The notes beneath the pieces are model-generated. The model was not told the origin of the DNA. It worked only from the letters and a program-made list of their open reading frames with translations, and did no database searches. Source: a phage. Taken from it: a DNA stretch of 64,000 nucleotides. The position numbers were made by a program, and so were the translations under genes. Of this stretch, positions 2,264-12,748 are shown piece after piece (position 1 is the first letter of the stretch; each line of letters opens with the position of its first letter). Where the stretch lies: sequence record PZ386967.1, one strand, 5' to 3'.

Positions 2264-4159
2264 ATGGCAACTCAAAGCTTCAGCGTTGCGCCGTCCGTAC
2301 AGTGGACTGAGCGTGATGCCACGCTTCAGACGTCCCCATCCGTTGTTGTTCAGGGTGCGGCTGTCGGCAAATTCCAATGGGGTGAGGCAGAACTCCCTGT
2401 GTTGGTCACTGGTGGTGAAACTGGTCTGGTGAAGAAATTCTTCAAGCCAAACGATGCAACTGCCACCGACTTCTTAGTGATTGCTGACTTCCTGTCTTAC
2501 AGCTCTGTTGCATGGGTGACCCGTGTGGTCGGTCCGGCGGCACGCAACGCTGTAACCAAAGGTCAGACTGCAATCCTTATCCGCAACAAATTAGACTTCG
2601 AAACTGCGTCCCCATCTGCGTCTATTACCTGGACAGGCCGCTATGCTGGCTCTCTGGGTAACGACATTGCTGTGAACATCTGTGACGCTGCGCTGTTCCC
2701 GACCTGGGAATTCCGTAACAACTTCGCATATGCTCCGCAGGATGGCGAGTACCATATCGCCATCGTTGACAAAGTAGGTCGCATCACCGACTCTTCTGGC
2801 GCTGTTAGTCAGGTTGATCGTATCTCTGTATCCGGTACTGCCACCGCTGCTGGTTCCATCTCTGTTGCTGGTGAAGCCGTGGCGTACACTGACGCTGACA
2901 CCCCGGCGACTCTGGCGACAAAGATCGGAACTGCGCTGACGTCTCTGTCTGAAGTATATTCTTCTGTTGTCGTGAAGTCCAACACCGTCACCGTCACTCA
3001 CAAAGCAATCGGTCCTCAGGCTGCGACTGCGATTGTTCCAGACGCGAATGGCCTGACTGCTACCGCTGCCGTCACCACTGTTGGTGCTTCCGGTACGATC
3101 ATCGAGAAGTATGAACTGGTTCAGACCGCTCAGGGTTCTAAGAAATCTGATGGATCCAATGCATACTTCAAAGACGTGATCAACGGCACCTCAAATTGGG
3201 TGTACACCTTCGCCACTACCCTGGCTGCTGGTGTCATTGAACTCGAAGGTGGTGTAGACGATTACACTGGGAACCGTGTTGCGGCTATCCAGGCACTGAA
3301 CAACGCCGAAGCGTATGATGCCAAGCCAGTGTTCGGTTTCTGTGAAGAACTGATTGAGCAGCAGGCACTGATCGACCTGTCCACCGAGCGTAAAGACACA
3401 GTGTCCTTCGTGTCTCCTCTTCGCGATACGGTCGTCGGAAACCGTGGCCGTGAGATGGATGATGTTGTGGCCTGGCGTGAAAGTCTTGTTCGCGACTCCT
3501 CCTACTTCTTCATGGATGACAACTGGGCGTATGTGTACGACAAGTACAACGACAAAATGCGTTGGATTCCGGCTTGTGGCGGCACCGCAGGTGTTTGGGC
3601 GCGCAGCATTGAAATCGCGGGTATCTACAAATCTCCGGCGTTCCACAACCGTGGTAAATACAACAACTATAATCGAATGGCATGGTCTGCGTCTTCTGAT
3701 GAGCGTGCTGTGCTGTATCGCAACCAGATCAACAGCATTGTCACCTTCTCCAACGAAGGCATCGTGTTGTACGGCGACAAGACTGGCCTGACCCGCCCAT
3801 CTGCGTTCGACCGCATCAACGTTCGTGGTCTGTTCATTATGGCAGAGCAGAACATCGCAGCCATCGCCAAATACTACCTTGGTGAGAACAACGATGCATT
3901 CACTCGTGGGTTGTTCAGCAACGCTGTCCGCCCATATATCCGCCAGTTGGCCAACATGGGCGCGATCTATGACGGGATGGTGAAGTGTGATGAGGACAAC
4001 AACACTGCGGAAGTTATCGCTGCCAACCAGATGGTTGCTGGTATCTGGCTGAAGCCCGAGTACAGCATAAATTGGGTGTATCTCGACTTCGCCGCCGTTC
4101 GCCCGGACATGGAATTCAGTGAGATCGAATCCGGTGGTGGTATCGTAGCCGCTTCTTAA
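2264..4159 (+). CDS. gp18: Tail sheath protein (gp18-like)
   Basis: GKFQWG near N-terminus and C-terminal YGDKT...FDRINVRGLF resemble T4 gp18; ATG at 2264 has RBS GAAGGAA upstream (the track's 2231 start is TTG). Confidence 0.85.
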   Translation: MATQSFSVAPSVQWTERDATLQTSPSVVVQGAAVGKFQWGEAELPVLVTGGETGLVKKFFKPNDATATDFLVIADFLSYSSVAWVTRVVGPAARNAVTKGQTAILIRNKLDFETASPSASITWTGRYAGSLGNDIAVNICDAALFPTWEFRNNFAYAPQDGEYHIAIVDKVGRITDSSGAVSQVDRISVSGTATAAGSISVAGEAVAYTDADTPATLATKIGTALTSLSEVYSSVVVKSNTVTVTHKAIGPQAATAIVPDANGLTATAAVTTVGASGTIIEKYELVQTAQGSKKSDGSNAYFKDVINGTSNWVYTFATTLAAGVIELEGGVDDYTGNRVAAIQALNNAEAYDAKPVFGFCEELIEQQALIDLSTERKDTVSFVSPLRDTVVGNRGREMDDVVAWRESLVRDSSYFFMDDNWAYVYDKYNDKMRWIPACGGTAGVWARSIEIAGIYKSPAFHNRGKYNNYNRMAWSASSDERAVLYRNQINSIVTFSNEGIVLYGDKTGLTRPSAFDRINVRGLFIMAEQNIAAIAKYYLGENNDAFTRGLFSNAVRPYIRQLANMGAIYDGMVKCDEDNNTAEVIAANQMVAGIWLKPEYSINWVYLDFAAVRPDMEFSEIESGGGIVAAS

Positions 4160-4201
4160 TTTACTCCATGCCCTCTTCGGAGGGTACATTGAGGTATTGT
4201 T

Positions 4202-4504
4202 ATGAAAAGTTTTTCTCAATTTTTAGCAGAAGCAGGCCTAAAAGGTGACCTTCAGAAAGTTAAAGACTCCGTGATTGAATGGTTGGAAGACCAAGATGTA
4301 AGGCTCAAAAAGGGTGATATCGAAAATGGAGTATTTGGAGATTTCTTCCGCATAACCATTGATGATTTTGAATATACATATAATGGCAAAGAGATCAAAG
4401 TATTCGACCTGAAGAAAGATAAACAGGTTGTTAGCAAAGCTGCTGGAACTCGAGAAGCCCCAGGTGAACTCGGTAAATTGTTTAAGAAATACAGCAAAGT
4501 GTGA
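4202..4504 (+). CDS. Small basic protein with T4 internal-protein-like capsid targeting sequence
   Basis: N-terminus MKSFSQFLAE|AGL resembles T4 IP targeting sequence MKTYQEFIAE with L-x-E cleavage motif; followed by a terminator. Confidence 0.5.
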   Translation: MKSFSQFLAEAGLKGDLQKVKDSVIEWLEDQDVRLKKGDIENGVFGDFFRITIDDFEYTYNGKEIKVFDLKKDKQVVSKAAGTREAPGELGKLFKKYSKV

Positions 4505-4509
4505 CAAGA

Positions 4510-4537
4510 CCCCGCTTCGGCGGGGTTTTAAATTTTT
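4510..4537 (+). terminator. Rho-independent terminator
   Basis: Hairpin CCCCGC-TTCG-GCGGGG followed by a T-run. Confidence 0.7.
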
Positions 4538-4550
4538 CTAGATTATTTTA

Positions 4551-4578
4551 TTGAATTACTTTACTTCTTCAATAACTC
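4551..4578 (+). promoter_or_regulatory. T4-type early promoter (-35 TTTACT, 16-bp spacer, -10 TATAAT)
   Basis: Matches the repeated cassette; T4 early promoters have a GTTTAC-type -35. Conserved leader and start context follow. Confidence 0.55.
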
Positions 4579-4635
4579 ACGTATAATTCTAAACATAAGC
4601 AGTACGACACCAACTTGAAACGAAGGAACTATATC

Positions 4636-4992
4636 ATGACCAAGACCGAAATTAACGCTATCCTGAAAGAAATCGGCCTCTGCAACCTGAAACGCCGCGT
4701 CAATCCTTACCAGCCCGCAAAGCCAGTACGCGACAGCCAGGGAAAGATGATAAAAGGGATCTACTGTGCAGATGTTGGCCCAATGACTGTGACCAGTCCA
4801 CACATTGACAGATTTAACGCTATTGTTGAGGAGTTTTGTGGTAAGGTTCTGGGTGAACTAGCTAATGATTTATGCTCCCCAGATACCAAAGTTGTAGCTT
4901 TCGGGAGCCACCTCGTCACATTCCACCTCACCAGCTTCCGTGCCCACGGTGATTATCATGTGTATTATGCTCAGGTTAGCATTCGCAAATAG
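4636..4992 (+). CDS. Hypothetical early protein (119 aa)
   Basis: ATG inside the conserved GGAACTATATCATG start context; the track's 4615 start is an upstream TTG. Confidence 0.5.
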   Translation: MTKTEINAILKEIGLCNLKRRVNPYQPAKPVRDSQGKMIKGIYCADVGPMTVTSPHIDRFNAIVEEFCGKVLGELANDLCSPDTKVVAFGSHLVTFHLTSFRAHGDYHVYYAQVSIRK

Positions 4993-4998
4993 CAGTTT

Positions 4999-5025
4999 AC
5001 CCCGCTGAGGCGGGGTTTAGTTTTC
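4999..5025. terminator. Terminator hairpin between convergent genes
   Basis: ACCCCGC-TGAG-GCGGGGT followed by T-rich tract; lies between the + gene ending 4992 and the - gene ending 5017. Confidence 0.6.
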
Positions 5026-6801
5026 CAGTTCATACCGGATAAGACCACACCCCCAGATACGCCCCAACCCGGCTTCCACCGACAGCATATCCTCTGTTTT
5101 GCCTTCTATATCGTATCCAAGTTTAAGGAATTTCTCTTTCCTGAAATTGAATTTGTGTATACGTAAGCTATAGTCTGGTGTCACATATTTGTAATCAGGG
5201 GGAAGGATTTCCTTTTCAACAAATCCGTTATTCAGGTAAACATTTTTCAGACGACTGACAACACAACGATCACCAAAAGAATATACTGTCTCACCCCGAT
5301 GTCGAGCGATATAATATTTCAGCAAGCGTGAGAATGCGCCATGGCAATTGTTAGAAGCAAATCTCACCAATTCAATACCATGCACTCGTTTGGTAAACAA
5401 CATCACCGCCTGGATATTCCCAGTTTTGTCTACAAGGTGTATATAATCTGTCGCCACCACACCACCTTGTATATGGAATCGGTCGAGAAAGTCCTTGGAC
5501 GTCCTATAGGAGCCTTCCAAAATGGTATGTTGGCGAGCGTATGACAATGGTTTCCCTATCCCCAATTTTGCTTTTAGGAGTGATTTAACCACTTCCTGTT
5601 TGTCACGCCACTCATCTTCCCAGATATGGATTAATTGAATACCCTGGGATTCACAGTGCATAGTCTTTTCAAGATGGTAGTCTTTGTATCGATGTTTCTC
5701 CGAATGCCAATACAACCCATTAAATTCTATTGCCAACTTATGTTCTGGGCAGTATATGTCTATCTGGCGTGTGGTCGCCCTCCCGTCGAACATTTTACCT
5801 CTGAGGACGGAGAAATTACCAGATTCATAAACGACACCCAATGAATCCAGGTATGAACATATTTCTATTTCTGGCTGTGTTTGGCTTTGGCTGCTGGGGT
5901 ATGTGAAAGAGTTCCTATATTCTTCAGAAGAGAAATAGTGAGGTACGCCGTATTTTTCTTTTGAAATGATCCTGGTATTGGCCTGGCTTCTATCCCATAT
6001 AGCCTTTACCTTCAACGGATAATCAACCCCATATTTTAAGACGCATGTTTTCTTTCTCTTTTCTATAATGGAATTGAGGAACATTGGATGATCCACACCA
6101 TAGATCTTCCTCCAAGTCTCAATCACCCTTTCCCTCACTTCTGGCATTTTCATGACGTGTGATACGCCATAGCGTTCCATGACAGAAGCAGCCACTCTGT
6201 CCTTTATAACATCAGACTTCATAGGGTGGTCGACCCCATATTTCTTAAGGGCAGTTTCCCGTGACTTTTGTTTTACTTCTTCCAGTTGGAATATGTTGGC
6301 TACGCCATATTTCTCTGTTATGGCGTTTTCTAGGTTGGCCCGTTCTGAGCCTCCCACCTTCATTGATTCTCGTTGGCATTCTTCGGAACAAAACTTTTTG
6401 TATCTGGGCGGTTGGGCTTCCATTTCTAAGCCGACGTCAGCACCGCAAGTGGCACACTGCGACTTCGGAATATCGTACAGCCAAGCAGTTATCGCTTGTG
6501 GTTCTTCTAATAGGTCGTTGTGTGACACCACGTATCCAACAACATCAACCCCAGTATGGGCCGTGAGTAGGGGATGAGAGATAAGTTTGTAGTTCAACGA
6601 ACCATCTTTCTTCCTGAGTTTACTATCAACCCAAGAGCGGCATTCGGTTTCGGTCGTCGGGATGTCATCCAACAAACCCGGATTGCGTTTCATCGTTCCC
6701 AGCATGAATGATTTGCATTCGTCACTACAATACAACGCAGCCTTCCTGGTTGGGGTGAACGGTTTGTGGCAGCATAAACAATTTTTATCGGGGAATGGCA
6801 T
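5017..6801 (-). CDS. Free-standing homing-endonuclease-like protein: N-terminal zinc ribbon, five KYGV repeats, C-terminal PD-(D/E)XK-like nuclease domain
   Basis: CCHKPF...YCSDEC and CATCG...FCSEEC cysteine pairs; repeated ~28-aa units (EKYGVANIF, KKYGVDHPM, ERYGVSHVM, KIYGVDHPM, LKYGVDYPL, EKYGVPHYF); C-terminal IDIYCPEHKLAIEFNGLYWH...IWEDEW resembles Vsr/DUF559-type nucleases. Antisense insertion between gp18 and gp19. Likely ATG at 6801; the track starts at GTG 6816. Confidence 0.6.
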   Translation of the reverse strand: MPFPDKNCLCCHKPFTPTRKAALYCSDECKSFMLGTMKRNPGLLDDIPTTETECRSWVDSKLRKKDGSLNYKLISHPLLTAHTGVDVVGYVVSHNDLLEEPQAITAWLYDIPKSQCATCGADVGLEMEAQPPRYKKFCSEECQRESMKVGGSERANLENAITEKYGVANIFQLEEVKQKSRETALKKYGVDHPMKSDVIKDRVAASVMERYGVSHVMKMPEVRERVIETWRKIYGVDHPMFLNSIIEKRKKTCVLKYGVDYPLKVKAIWDRSQANTRIISKEKYGVPHYFSSEEYRNSFTYPSSQSQTQPEIEICSYLDSLGVVYESGNFSVLRGKMFDGRATTRQIDIYCPEHKLAIEFNGLYWHSEKHRYKDYHLEKTMHCESQGIQLIHIWEDEWRDKQEVVKSLLKAKLGIGKPLSYARQHTILEGSYRTSKDFLDRFHIQGGVVATDYIHLVDKTGNIQAVMLFTKRVHGIELVRFASNNCHGAFSRLLKYYIARHRGETVYSFGDRCVVSRLKNVYLNNGFVEKEILPPDYKYVTPDYSLRIHKFNFRKEKFLKLGYDIEGKTEDMLSVEAGLGRIWGCGLIRYELEN

Positions 6802-6882
6802 AATAAATATCCTCACTTTGGAGTATTTTAACCCCCATTTATTTCAAAACTAAATATTTACACTATTCAGAGGAGAACGACC

Positions 6883-7416
6883 ATGGCTACAGTTAATGAA
6901 TTCAGAGCAGCTATGTCACGCGGGGGTGGCGTTCAGCGCCAACACCGCTGGCGTGTGACTGTTAACTTCCCTTCCTTCGTGGCTGGAAGCGATACCATCC
7001 GTGATGTTTCGCTGTTGGCGGTGACCACAAATACCCCAACAGGCCAGCTCGGGGAGATACTCGTCCCATGGGGTGGTCGTGAACTTCCATTCCCAGGTGA
7101 CCGTCGTTTTGAGGCTCTGCCTGTAACGTTTATCAACGTTGTGGACAACGCCCCGTACAACGCATTCGAAGTCTGGCAGCAGTACATCAACGGCAGCAAC
7201 AACAACCGTGCGTCTGCTAACCCAGATGATTATTTCCGTGATGTAATCATGGAACTGCTGGATGCGAATGACAATGTCACCAAGACCTGGACCCTTCAGG
7301 GCGCCTGGCCTCAGAACCTCGGTCAGCTGGAACTGGACATGTCTGCAATGGACTCTTATACTCAGTTCACTGTTGACCTGCGTTACTTCCAGGCCATTTC
7401 AGACAAGTCTCTCTAA
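6883..7416 (+). CDS. gp19: Tail tube protein (gp19-like)
   Basis: C-terminal LQGAWPQNLGQLELDMSAMDSYTQFTVDL resembles T4 gp19 IKGLWPTNVGELQLDWDSNNEIQTFEVTL; RBS GAGGAG. Confidence 0.8.
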   Translation: MATVNEFRAAMSRGGGVQRQHRWRVTVNFPSFVAGSDTIRDVSLLAVTTNTPTGQLGEILVPWGGRELPFPGDRRFEALPVTFINVVDNAPYNAFEVWQQYINGSNNNRASANPDDYFRDVIMELLDANDNVTKTWTLQGAWPQNLGQLELDMSAMDSYTQFTVDLRYFQAISDKSL

Positions 7417-7482: not shown

Positions 7483-9177
7483 ATGGCATTCGGTAATGGT
7501 GCATTCGGAAATGGGTTCTTCGGCTTGTTCGGCAGAGGCGGCAAAGTAGAAGCGCCGATTGATACCGACAAGATGGTCACGAACCAAGAAGAGAAGTTGC
7601 TTTCAAAAGCGACTGTTGTTGCGCTGGACGATTCTCAGGATGGTTCGATCATCCTCCAGGGCGGCGCGAACACATTCAATTTCGTTGGTGTTGAGAATGA
7701 GTTGCTCAACGTCAAACAGCTGGTCGAAGAGTACCAGTCTATGGCTCAGCAGCCTGAGATTCGTAAGGCTGTGGATATCATTGTCAACGACATCGTCACC
7801 TGTGAAGAGGACGAGACTCCTGTAACCATCAACCTGGAAAAGGTAGATGGCATCACAAACGAAGTCAAAGAGAAGATCACTGAAGCATTCAAAGAGATCA
7901 TGCATCTCCTTGACTTTGACAACACGGCGTATCAGAAGATCCGCAAATGGTATATTGAAGGCCGTCAGGCATTCCACGTTGTAGTGGACCCGAAGAACAA
8001 GAAAGCGGGTATCGCCAAACTCATCATGATGGACTCACGCTGTATCCGCCCAGTGTACATCGTTCAAAAGGCGATGCGCGACGGTATCGAAGTCATCAAT
8101 GACGTAAAACTTCAATACTACTACAACCCGAACTACAACCGCAACCAATTCACTGGCCAGTCCGGTACGTCTCAGAACTTCCAACCGTCACAGCAAGAGC
8201 TGGTGTTCGACGATGAGAGCATCGTGTATCTGGACAGTGGTGAAGAGCCTCTGGCGAATGGGGTTGTACCAAGCCTGCTGAACCCAGCTATCCGTCCCCT
8301 GAACAACCTTGTTACAACTGAAGATGCAACTGTGATCTATGCGATCACACGTGCTCCTGAGAAGCGAGCGTTCTATCTCGACGTGGGTACGCTGGGTAAG
8401 AAGTCGGCCGAAGAATACATGCAAGCCATGATGGGCAAATTCAAGAACCGTCTGGCGTATGATCGCACCACTGGTAAGGTGGCTGGTAACACTCATTTGA
8501 TGGGTATCGCTGAGGACTACTGGCTGCCACGTCGTGAAGGACAGAACGCAACCGAGATCTCCAACGTAGGCGGTGGCGATCAACTGGGTCAAATGGATCA
8601 TGTGGTATACTTCCGCGAGAAGCTCTACGAGGCTCTGATGATCCCTAAGAGCCGCCTGCAAGAGGAAGGTTCCATCAACATCGGTGGTTCCAATCTTGCT
8701 GAAATCACACAGGAAGAATTGCGCTTCAACAAGTTCTGTGCGAGCCTGCGCCGTCGTTATTCTTCTGGTATCTTCCTGGAACTTCTGCGCCGTCAGCTGA
8801 TATTGAAAGGCATTACAGATCAGGCTGACTGGAATGAGAAGATCAAGCCGTTCGTCAAGTTCGAATTCACTTCTGACAGCTTCATCCGTGAACAACAAGA
8901 GAACGAAATCTTGTCACAGCGTATGGCGGCTCTCGGTCAGATCGAACCATATATCGGCACTCTCTTCTCTATCGATTTTGCTCAACGCAATTTGCTGCGT
9001 ATGTCCGATGAAGACATCAAAGACCAGCAAGAGAAGATCGCGAAAGAGAAGAAAGAAGGCAAATACCCTGAAGTGCAGGCAGATGAGTCCGGCGGCTTCG
9101 GCAGCGGGGAAGTCAGTCCACTGAAATTCAGACCTAACGTCATCCCAGCGACTAACCCTCCTGGTGGTGAAGAATAA
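7483..9177 (+). CDS. gp20: Portal protein (gp20-like)
   Basis: 564-aa ORF in the gp19 to gp67/68/21 position of the T4 head module; good RBS. Confidence 0.75.
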   Translation: MAFGNGAFGNGFFGLFGRGGKVEAPIDTDKMVTNQEEKLLSKATVVALDDSQDGSIILQGGANTFNFVGVENELLNVKQLVEEYQSMAQQPEIRKAVDIIVNDIVTCEEDETPVTINLEKVDGITNEVKEKITEAFKEIMHLLDFDNTAYQKIRKWYIEGRQAFHVVVDPKNKKAGIAKLIMMDSRCIRPVYIVQKAMRDGIEVINDVKLQYYYNPNYNRNQFTGQSGTSQNFQPSQQELVFDDESIVYLDSGEEPLANGVVPSLLNPAIRPLNNLVTTEDATVIYAITRAPEKRAFYLDVGTLGKKSAEEYMQAMMGKFKNRLAYDRTTGKVAGNTHLMGIAEDYWLPRREGQNATEISNVGGGDQLGQMDHVVYFREKLYEALMIPKSRLQEEGSINIGGSNLAEITQEELRFNKFCASLRRRYSSGIFLELLRRQLILKGITDQADWNEKIKPFVKFEFTSDSFIREQQENEILSQRMAALGQIEPYIGTLFSIDFAQRNLLRMSDEDIKDQQEKIAKEKKEGKYPEVQADESGGFGSGEVSPLKFRPNVIPATNPPGGEE

Positions 9178-12720: not shown

Positions 12721-12748
12721 ACCCCGCTTCGGCGGGGTTTTTCATTTT
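12721..12748 (+). terminator. Rho-independent terminator after gp23
   Basis: ACCCCGC-TTCG-GCGGGGT followed by TTTTTCATTTT. Confidence 0.75.

Follow-up and report, generated by a model that had tools for sequence, protein, structure and literature searches.

A 64,000-nt stretch of phage DNA (sequence record PZ386967.1; referred to as the window, with coordinates counted from its first letter) contains between its tail sheath and tail tube genes a spacer that is best explained, with a probability of about 0.78, as a recombination hotspot of three mobile cassettes, the dominant one carrying a free-standing Hef-type homing endonuclease. Genes 18 and 19 of phage T4 are adjacent. In the window, 2,723 bp lie between the stop of the sheath gene (gp18) at 4159 and the ATG of the tube gene (gp19; 6883-7416, plus strand) at 6883, in agreement with the approximately 2.7 kb reported in a first-pass annotation of this DNA. 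The spacer holds two small open reading frames (ORFs) on the plus strand, ORF-A and ORF-B, and one antisense gene for a protein of 594 amino acids (aa), and its G+C content is 0.36-0.47 as opposed to 0.50-0.54 for the flanks. The window phage is a Vi1-like member of the Ackermannviridae. Its nearest relative, Escherichia phage vB_EcoM-ZQ1 (Ackermannviridae, Aglimvirinae), is 97.5% identical in nucleotide sequence across the full length of the region and has the identical five-gene layout, the large gene being annotated there as 'putative homing endonuclease'. No second copies of ORF-A, ORF-B or the Hef gene were found elsewhere in the 64-kb window.

Sequence comparison identifies the antisense gene (5017-6801, minus strand) as an ortholog of F-LimVIII of Dickeya phage LIMEstone1, which has been listed as a "Hef-like" free-standing homing endonuclease and a mobile element within the structural module (Adriaenssens et al. 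2012, PMC3296691). The two proteins are 90% identical, and both genes lie at the sheath-tube locus in the same position and orientation, on the minus strand, with the palindrome TAAATATTTA upstream. The LIMEstone1 locus differs in that it is without ORF-A and ORF-B and keeps a hairpin and the 3' remnant of a GIY-YIG gene, whereas in the window the region upstream of Hef adjoins the tube ATG directly. A profile search with the 594-aa protein, one of the checks proposed in the first-pass annotation, returned the 'homing endonuclease' family phrog_3339 (E=2e-191), and the protein has more than 3,300 homologs. Amino acid identity is 96% within Agtrevirus-like phages, 90% to Limestonevirus and 80% to Kuttervirus, and ZQ1, PC3, maane and Mutine carry the same annotation. 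The earlier suggestion of a homing-endonuclease-like gene in the spacer is thus supported both by orthology with F-LimVIII and by the Vsr-type nuclease fold described below. The predicted 594-aa antisense reading frame was also confirmed, with an ATG at 6801 preceded by a GAGGA Shine-Dalgarno sequence. This ATG is the likely start, in place of an in-frame upstream GTG that would give 599 aa and that accounts for the gene end previously set at 6816.

The palindrome TAAATATTTA (6851-6860) may contain two diverging late promoters, one for the tube gene on the plus strand and one for the Hef-like gene on the minus strand. In LIMEstone1 the identical TAAATATTTA has been given an annotation of two putative late -10 signals that overlap, one on each strand. 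The spacer does not contain TATAAATA, the consensus for T4 late promoters, which turns up just twice in 64 kb, so that the late-promoter assignment leans on the TAAATA annotation of LIMEstone1, and late divergent transcription of the Hef and tube genes is putative by analogy with that phage.

From N- to C-terminus the Hef-like protein, for which an AlphaFold2 model was obtained from an alignment of 44 homologs (mean predicted local distance difference test score of 87), consists of one or two zinc ribbons, six 23-aa helical repeats, a Vsr-like nuclease domain and a Mom-like GNAT domain. The zinc ribbon of the first-pass annotation is present, as two Cys4 clusters rather than one: an N-terminal cluster (C8/C10/C11...C25/C29; 6715-6780, minus strand) that is kept only among close orthologs and a zinc-ribbon-like motif (C116, C119, C138 and C142; 6376-6456, minus strand) that alone is nearly invariant in the 44 homologs. 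The five KYGV repeats noted previously became six on recounting (5926-6363, minus strand; repeat starts at aa 164, 187, 210, 233, 256 and 283), four with an exact KYGV and the others with RYGV and IYGV. These xYGV repeats correspond to helices of the model, match Pfam DUF7487 (E=1.4e-25) and are probably a DNA-recognition module. Two alleles of the array (aa ~199-312, window 5875-6202) have been swapped between orthologs that are otherwise 92-100% identical, type 1 occurring in the window, LIMEstone1 and P0002 and type 2 in maane, P0003 and P0004. Thus, the P0003 and window proteins are 54% identical in the repeats as compared with 99% in the N-terminal part, 92% in the nuclease and 100% in the C-terminal part, and no nucleotide similarity to window 5875-6202 was found in maane. 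Exchange between near-identical orthologs is the behaviour expected of a specificity-determining module, a role that this swappable array would appear to have, and a swap of alleles may change target specificity. Hef paralogs have fewer repeats in the array.

The nuclease domain (aa 306-415; 5557-5886, minus strand) was assigned by fold and profile searches to the Vsr-type PD-(D/E)XK fold, as the PD-(D/E)XK-like label of the first-pass annotation had anticipated. It matches I-Bth0305I (PDB 3r3p; phmmer E=0.0035, family profile E=4e-6), and matches of the window protein to the Pfam models MTES_1575, DUF559 and Vsr were all under the curated cut-offs. I-Bth0305I is the prototype of the Vsr-like 'EDxHD' homing endonucleases, a family in which Taylor et al. 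also placed the Hef-type enzymes (PMC3239194). E311, D348 and H366 are invariant in the 44 homologs and align with active-site residues of I-Bth0305I, and N361, found in 41 of the 44, aligns with N208 of that enzyme. In other respects the two proteins are unlike: I-Bth0305I is intron-encoded and 266 aa long, with an N-terminal NUMOD/helix-turn-helix region and a C-terminal nuclease, whereas the window gene is free-standing and its protein has a zinc ribbon and six 23-aa repeats before the nuclease and a Mom-like domain after it.

Sheath-tube junctions were inspected in Ackermannviridae relatives from five genera, 60 of the 284 matching records being listed. Every relative inspected has an endonuclease gene at this junction, normally of the GIY-YIG family, and six junction states were distinguished. 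A short GIY-YIG gene is found in Vi01, SFP10 and Magnus, IME250 having an ORF of equal size there that is unannotated, and a long one in RPN242 and XF4, the long and short proteins being homologous (40-44% identity). The junction of phiMAM1 has two GIY-YIG genes, and some Salmonella and Klebsiella phages have two endonuclease genes there. A Hef-like gene occupies the junction in about 26 of the 284 matching records, these being from Agtrevirus-like coliphages, Limestonevirus and Kuttervirus. The comparison of this junction among relatives, which had been proposed with the caveat that a single insertion shared by all of them would speak against mobility, thus revealed the opposite, a polymorphic locus. 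In LIMEstone1, a sheath-type hairpin and the last GIY-YIG codons are kept between the Hef and tube genes (5330-5539), which indicates that the Hef gene arrived on top of a GIY-YIG allele. The Hef cassette is therefore a replacement of a GIY-YIG gene and not an insertion into an empty junction. A window-type ribosome-binding site and ATG for the tube gene stand directly before the retained hairpin of LIMEstone1, which suggests that the window arrangement arose from a further deletion at CCATG/ATG microhomology. Papers on Dickeya phages describe endonuclease genes that vary between isolates at fixed positions, some of them decayed.

Exchange of sequence at this locus extends into both flanking genes. 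Thus, LIMEstone1 and XF4, which belong to the same species, have 5 differences in 3,281 nt upstream and 40 in the last 151 nt of the sheath gene, differ in the cassette, and then have 58 differences in nt 21-342 of the tube gene and none in the next 1,690 nt. From this comparison and that with ZQ1, the 3' end of the sheath gene (4009-4159, plus strand) is a mosaic, apparently co-converted flank. The window itself is 84-90% identical to ZQ1, PC3, LHE287 and RPN242 over 4009-4159, the rest of the sheath gene being mostly 97-100% identical, and these approximately 150 nt are a private mosaic tract. On the other side, the 5' part of the tube gene (6883-7224, plus strand) has travelled with the Hef cassette. 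Over nt 1-180 of this gene, identity to the window is 95% for LIMEstone1 and 94% for maane, both of which bear Hef, whereas it is 78-81% for the GIY-YIG-bearing XF4, Vi01, SFP10 and Magnus. Past nt 180, LIMEstone1 and maane are at least as distant from the window as their GIY-YIG-bearing congeners and 89-100% identical to their own genus (97% for maane and Vi01). All Agtrevirus-like phages have the same tube 5' sequence irrespective of the endonuclease that they carry. The simplest reading of these alignments is that an Agtrevirus-like donor exported the Hef cassette and its flanks into two other genera.

Rates of divergence pointed in the same direction. Between genera, synonymous divergence (dS) is 0.41-0.49 for Hef, 0.79-1.39 for the sheath gene and 1.48-1.58 for the unconverted tube gene of GIY-YIG phages, and the ratio of nonsynonymous to synonymous divergence (dN/dS) of the Hef gene, 0.13-0.27, indicates that the protein is under purifying selection. 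These values bear on a different explanation of the spacer, namely that it is vertically inherited accessory DNA subject to differential loss, with an inactive or domesticated, immobile nuclease-like gene. Strict conservation of gene order at the junction, the constant place and orientation of the Hef gene and the broad agreement of Hef divergence with genus distance (96%, 90% and 80% aa identity) would all fit vertical descent. This explanation is nevertheless very improbable given that between genera the flanking genes have two to three times the dS of Hef, that the Agtrevirus-type tube 5' tract of LIMEstone1 and maane is absent from their GIY-YIG-bearing congeners, that a pair of phages from one species differs just by the cassette and its flanks, that a GIY-YIG remnant lies beside the Hef gene of LIMEstone1, and that all catalytic residues are intact in a gene with a dN/dS of 0.13-0.27.

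Decay of the gene was seen as well. Escherichia phage LHE287, which is 97% identical to the window, carries a Hef pseudogene (positions 4264-4679 of its record) that is interrupted by a stop at codon 6 and has lost 1.46 kb internally at an AGTT microhomology. Close relatives thus either have or lack the Hef gene at one and the same site, and its flanks have been exchanged. The life cycle of a homing-endonuclease gene runs from invasion, in which flanking sequence is co-converted, through a phase of selective maintenance to decay. Invasion of the Hef cassette together with its flanks, selection on the protein and the decayed LHE287 copy are the stages expected of such a cycle; the co-conversion tracts are measurable at this locus and the decayed copy marks the end of the cycle. 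Places paralogous to Hef number up to 4 per Dickeya phage genome. Matches to the nuclease and Mom-like core were also noted at 10-12 places in Campylobacter phages (F356, F361, CPX and others) and at 3-6 places in jumbo phages (Lak, PA5oct and RaK2). Taken together with the Vsr fold and the polymorphic junction, F-LimVIII orthology upholds the selfish-element traffic that was proposed in the first-pass annotation.

The mechanism we propose is that, in a mixed infection with a related phage that lacks Hef, the enzyme would cut the DNA of that phage near the sheath-tube junction and the break would be repaired from the Hef-carrying genome, so that the gene is copied in along with approximately 150 nt of the sheath 3' end and approximately 180-340 nt of the tube 5' end. 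By such events the cassette would have displaced the GIY-YIG gene at the junction and moved between Agtrevirus-like, Limestonevirus and Kuttervirus phages. Several observations weigh against this proposal. A cleavage site was sought from differences between Hef-plus and Hef-minus alleles and none could be named, since differences are spread across the whole tract and GIY-YIG phages of Agtrevirus have the Hef-plus tube sequence. Thus, RPN242 (Agtrevirus) bears a GIY-YIG gene and yet has the Hef-type tube 5' sequence, and no obviously sensitive allele is therefore evident in the window's own genus. Ordinary recombination followed by selection, with no targeted break, can also yield short flanking tracts. 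The composite EDxHD motif of the nuclease is matched at four of five residues, the fifth position being an invariant His (H376) where I-Bth0305I has Asp (D222). Finally, a plain homing-endonuclease model leaves the conserved Mom-type catalytic residues of the C-terminal domain unexplained.

This C-terminal domain (aa 420-594; 5020-5544, minus strand), which had been overlooked in the first-pass annotation, was recognized from fold and profile searches and has a GNAT fold. Within the C-terminal 175 aa, it pairs with Mom in the motifs ELxRF/ELNRMW, SFADR/SFADER and GxxY..GF/GVVYQASNF. The Pfam Mom model, PF25680, did not match the window protein at E<=0.1 or E<=0.01 and matched 5 of the 44 aligned homologs (best E=2.7e-10), and hhalign to Mom gave a probability of 74% (E=2.8e-5), so that homology with Mom is supported transitively and by profile comparison. 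H58, R111, S124, D149, R151 and Y159 are essential in Mom of phage Mu (PMC13219725). Of these, H58, R111, D149 and Y159 align with H443, R480, D511 and Y522, each present in 44 of 44 homologs, S124 with S491 (39 of 44) and, offset by one residue, R151 with R512 (31 of 44), confidence in this Mom alignment being moderate. Mu Mom, a GNAT-fold DNA adenine-modifying enzyme (PDB 8bv8), thus has its fold and essential residues in common with the C-terminus of the window protein but differs from it in that the window domain is fused to a nuclease and shows the genomic behaviour of a homing element. The nuclease and Mom-like domains together are the conserved core of "Hef-like" proteins in T4-like, Campylobacter, Acinetobacter and jumbo phages, and two Acinetobacter phage records label such a protein "nuclease/acetyltransferase". 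No paper that combines 'Hef-like' with 'acetyltransferase' was found in the library searched.

Mom domains fused to domains of restriction-endonuclease fold have been described in jumbo phages, with a predicted role in modification plus restriction (Iyer et al., PMC7824862). By extension, the 594-aa protein could be a single-chain conflict system, not primarily concerned with homing, in which the Mom-like domain modifies the phage's own adenines and the Vsr-like domain degrades DNA that lacks the modification, whether from the host or from superinfecting phages. The intact Mom-type residues are what such a system would lead one to expect, and we nevertheless consider it improbable, ranking it below homing on account of the many paralogs, the finding that near-identical phages may carry the gene, lack it or have a decayed copy, the exchange of tracts centred on the gene's own locus and the variable repeat array. 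Diverged paralogs at several intergenic sites (4 in Dickeya phages and 10-12 in Campylobacter phages) are more in keeping with selfish, site-specific elements than with a single system protecting the whole genome, and a variable N-terminal array suggests sequence-specific targeting. The DNA modification reported for ViI-like phages is thymidine hypermodification, and we know of no report of adenine modification in these phages, both of which weigh against a conflict system based on Mom. Furthermore, U5 Hef is reported to be a homing endonuclease, PMC2988022 citing it as cleaving nrdB. A second possibility retains homing and makes Hef-type enzymes bifunctional, with a conserved Mom-like domain that would be catalytically active on DNA. 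This is doubtful as well, if slightly less so than the conflict system. Under this bifunctional scheme, the domain might modify an adenine within or next to the site that the enzyme itself recognizes and protect the carrier genome in that way, self-protection being achieved through modification and not through a change of target-site sequence. Alternatively, the Mom-like domain could serve as a base-flipping recognition module.

Returning to homing as the preferred explanation, the dominant Hef cassette shares the spacer with two others. The cassettes span 4185-4508 (ORF-A), 4509-4998 (ORF-B) and 4999-6882 (Hef). The stretch homologous to Magnus takes in the sheath 3' end and the ORF-A cassette and stops at 4530, homology with PC3 and maane, which covers ORF-B and Hef, begins at 4504-4509 (at 4509 for PC3), and homology with LIMEstone1, which covers only Hef, begins at 4999. 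A single insertion, as which the spacer was originally described, was rejected since its three parts differ in distribution and in borders; they are better seen as separately mobile cassettes, the Hef one being a replacement. The borders coincide with terminator hairpins. The left edge of the variable region is a CCCTCTTCGGAGGG hairpin (4171-4184, plus strand) directly after the sheath stop, which RPN242, XF4 and Magnus keep at this place, other relatives having a CCCGCTTCGGCGGG hairpin. An intrinsic-terminator hairpin after ORF-A (4506-4529, plus strand) forms the next border; its CCCCGCTTCGGCGGGG sequence recurs at 12722-12737 after the major capsid gene and is also found after the sheath gene in PC3 and after ORF-A in Magnus. 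The left edge of the Hef cassette is a ACCCCGCTGAGGCGGGGT hairpin (4999-5016) on which the stop codons of ORF-B and the Hef-like gene converge from either side.

ORF-A (4202-4504, plus strand; 100 aa, ribosome-binding site GAGG at 4191-4194) is an orphan with the N-terminus MKSFSQFLAE. It had no match in Pfam, PHROG or NCBIfam, and its homologs amount to 4 clusters in 5.8 billion proteins and to 3 matches in an exhaustive HMMER scan of 1.84 billion representatives. They are located after the sheath gene in ZQ1, LHE287 and Magnus and after the major capsid gene in SKML-39 and CAU_YEP3. The SKML-39 and CAU_YEP3 homolog (4001-4321 of those records) is 76% identical to ORF-A. In T4, the prohead protease cuts after the capsid-targeting sequence MKTYQEFIAE (PMC8442874). 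MKSFSQFLAE is identical to this sequence at 5 of 10 positions and conservative at 4, a resemblance of pattern with no statistic beyond its rarity, and no other ORF with a capsid-targeting motif was found in the 64-kb window. M1, F4, L8 and E10 of ORF-A are invariant in 8 homologs, L8 and E10 corresponding to the L/I-x-E in front of the prohead-protease cut. The targeting-like N-terminus, the invariant L8 and E10 and the place behind a heavily expressed late gene make a head-packaged internal protein the likeliest role for ORF-A, and we propose this role tentatively, from sequence features. ORF-A was called internal-protein-like in the first-pass annotation; from the N-terminal similarity to the T4 capsid-targeting sequence, its one basis, that label is plausible, and set against it is the composition of the protein, which is not basic like T4 internal proteins (mature isoelectric point 8.1; 18 Lys plus Arg as compared with 17 Asp plus Glu). 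In common with those proteins (PMC8442874, PMC3012670), ORF-A is small, highly variable, lineage-restricted and behind a strong late gene; besides its isoelectric point, it differs from them in lying outside an internal-protein locus and in that use of the signal by an Ackermannviridae prohead protease is putative. Expression of ORF-A would probably be late and by read-through, with the T4-like capsid-targeting leader in place. Similarity between ORF-A and P0131, a 3,495-aa RTX/cadherin-repeat adhesin, was also considered and is probably spurious, its E-value being made up of seven weak repeat matches. Residues 15-78 of ORF-A (4244-4435) align with cadherin-like repeats of P0131 at approximately 28% identity, each pairwise E being approximately 0.01, and this similarity, if not due to chance, may suggest a small beta-sandwich.

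ORF-B (4636-4992, plus strand; 118 aa from the start annotated in ZQ1, the mechanical ORF beginning at TTG 4615) belongs to phrog_13016. Distant relatives occur in other Ackermannviridae and in T4-like genomes, and fold searches gave no informative match. A homolog in Magnus, 55% identical, is located several kb downstream of the sheath-tube junction of that phage. Upstream of ORF-B is a sigma-70-like promoter of early type, TTTACT-16-TATAAT (4560-4587, plus strand), which matches the consensus at 10 of 12 positions, is the only such site in the region and has a sequence unique in the window. ORF-B had been described as early-promoter-driven, and that label is supported to the extent that this consensus match is present. 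An 81-nt stretch that includes the promoter is 81% identical to sequence upstream of another gene in SKML-39. In that phage, positions 5782-5862 and 5049-5072, which precede two small genes, are 81-96% identical to the ORF-B promoter and leader (window 4560-4639), and these copies point to a reused regulatory cassette. PeSL promoter-terminator cassettes have been described for T4-type phages (PMC2839356, PMC4122927). ORF-A and ORF-B resemble them in that a stem-loop terminator is followed by an early-type promoter beside small novel ORFs, and the window differs from the Tevenvirinae-type arrangement in having just three copies of the hairpin in 64 kb and a unique promoter sequence. ORF-B may thus be a small gene expressed early from a PeSL-like promoter/terminator cassette.

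Of the neighbouring genes, the T4-type large terminase gene (TerL; 1-2211) opens the window and the portal gene (7483-9177) lies downstream of the tube gene. The terminase contains a mini-intein of 159 aa (aa 110-268; 328-804) with a Cys1...His-Asn|Thr arrangement, located in the Walker A loop. Its junctions read ...ARQSGK|CVKGD...FLSHN|TTVV, and excision restores the Walker A motif GKT(T). Pfam Intein_splicing scored 29.5 bits on the terminase, below its cut-off of 35.8, and in Klebsiella phage Magnus the homologous terminase segment carries an intein annotation. A length of 159 aa leaves no space for an endonuclease domain. TerL is approximately 2.2 kb in every relative inspected and the intein is therefore probably fixed. 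Thus, the intein on which the first-pass annotation drew as a sign of selfish traffic is real, but as a mini-intein lacking an endonuclease it is probably an old, fixed invasion and not current traffic.

Comparison with known systems places the Hef cassette among mobile endonuclease genes of T4-like phages. Hef of the T-even phage U5 (Sandegren et al. 2005, as cited in PMC2988022 and PMC3239194) and the 'Hef-like' genes of T4-like phages are likewise free-standing and located between conserved essential genes, and Hef has in each case replaced another endonuclease gene at the same site, a GIY-YIG gene in the window lineage and mobE in U5. Matches to T4-like 'Hef-like' proteins extend over aa ~110-590 or ~300-590 of the window protein at 25-30% identity, and the N-terminal region of zinc ribbon and repeats is longer in the window protein than in the T4-like copies. 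The seg and mob genes of T4 (PMC2988022) also lie between genes and carry promoters, and they pass from one co-infecting phage to another through break repair, in the course of which flanking markers are co-converted; different endonuclease families compete for one locus there as well. They encode GIY-YIG or HNH enzymes, whereas the window nuclease is Vsr-like, and the evidence from the window is comparative.

The element and the hotspot are already known: the name F-LimVIII was given to the gene at this very locus in 2012, the gene is annotated in the nearest GenBank relative and variation of endonuclease genes at fixed positions has been published, so that little here is new. What is of interest is chiefly how clean the comparison between phages is, together with the Mom-like domain found throughout the family. 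The locus is a clean natural example of homing-type gene replacement, in which, in three of the five genera inspected, one junction is occupied by a GIY-YIG gene in some phages and by a Hef-like gene in others, and exchange of the 23-aa repeat array between otherwise identical orthologs is as expected of a programmable DNA-recognition module. For candidates of this family in phage therapy, the region is accessory and recombinogenic, and the findings indicate no safety concern. The presence of a Mom-like domain with an intact active-site constellation across the whole Hef-like family could merit specialist attention. Were the bifunctional interpretation true, Hef would be a one-polypeptide, site-specific element akin to a restriction-modification system, with its target set by the repeat array.

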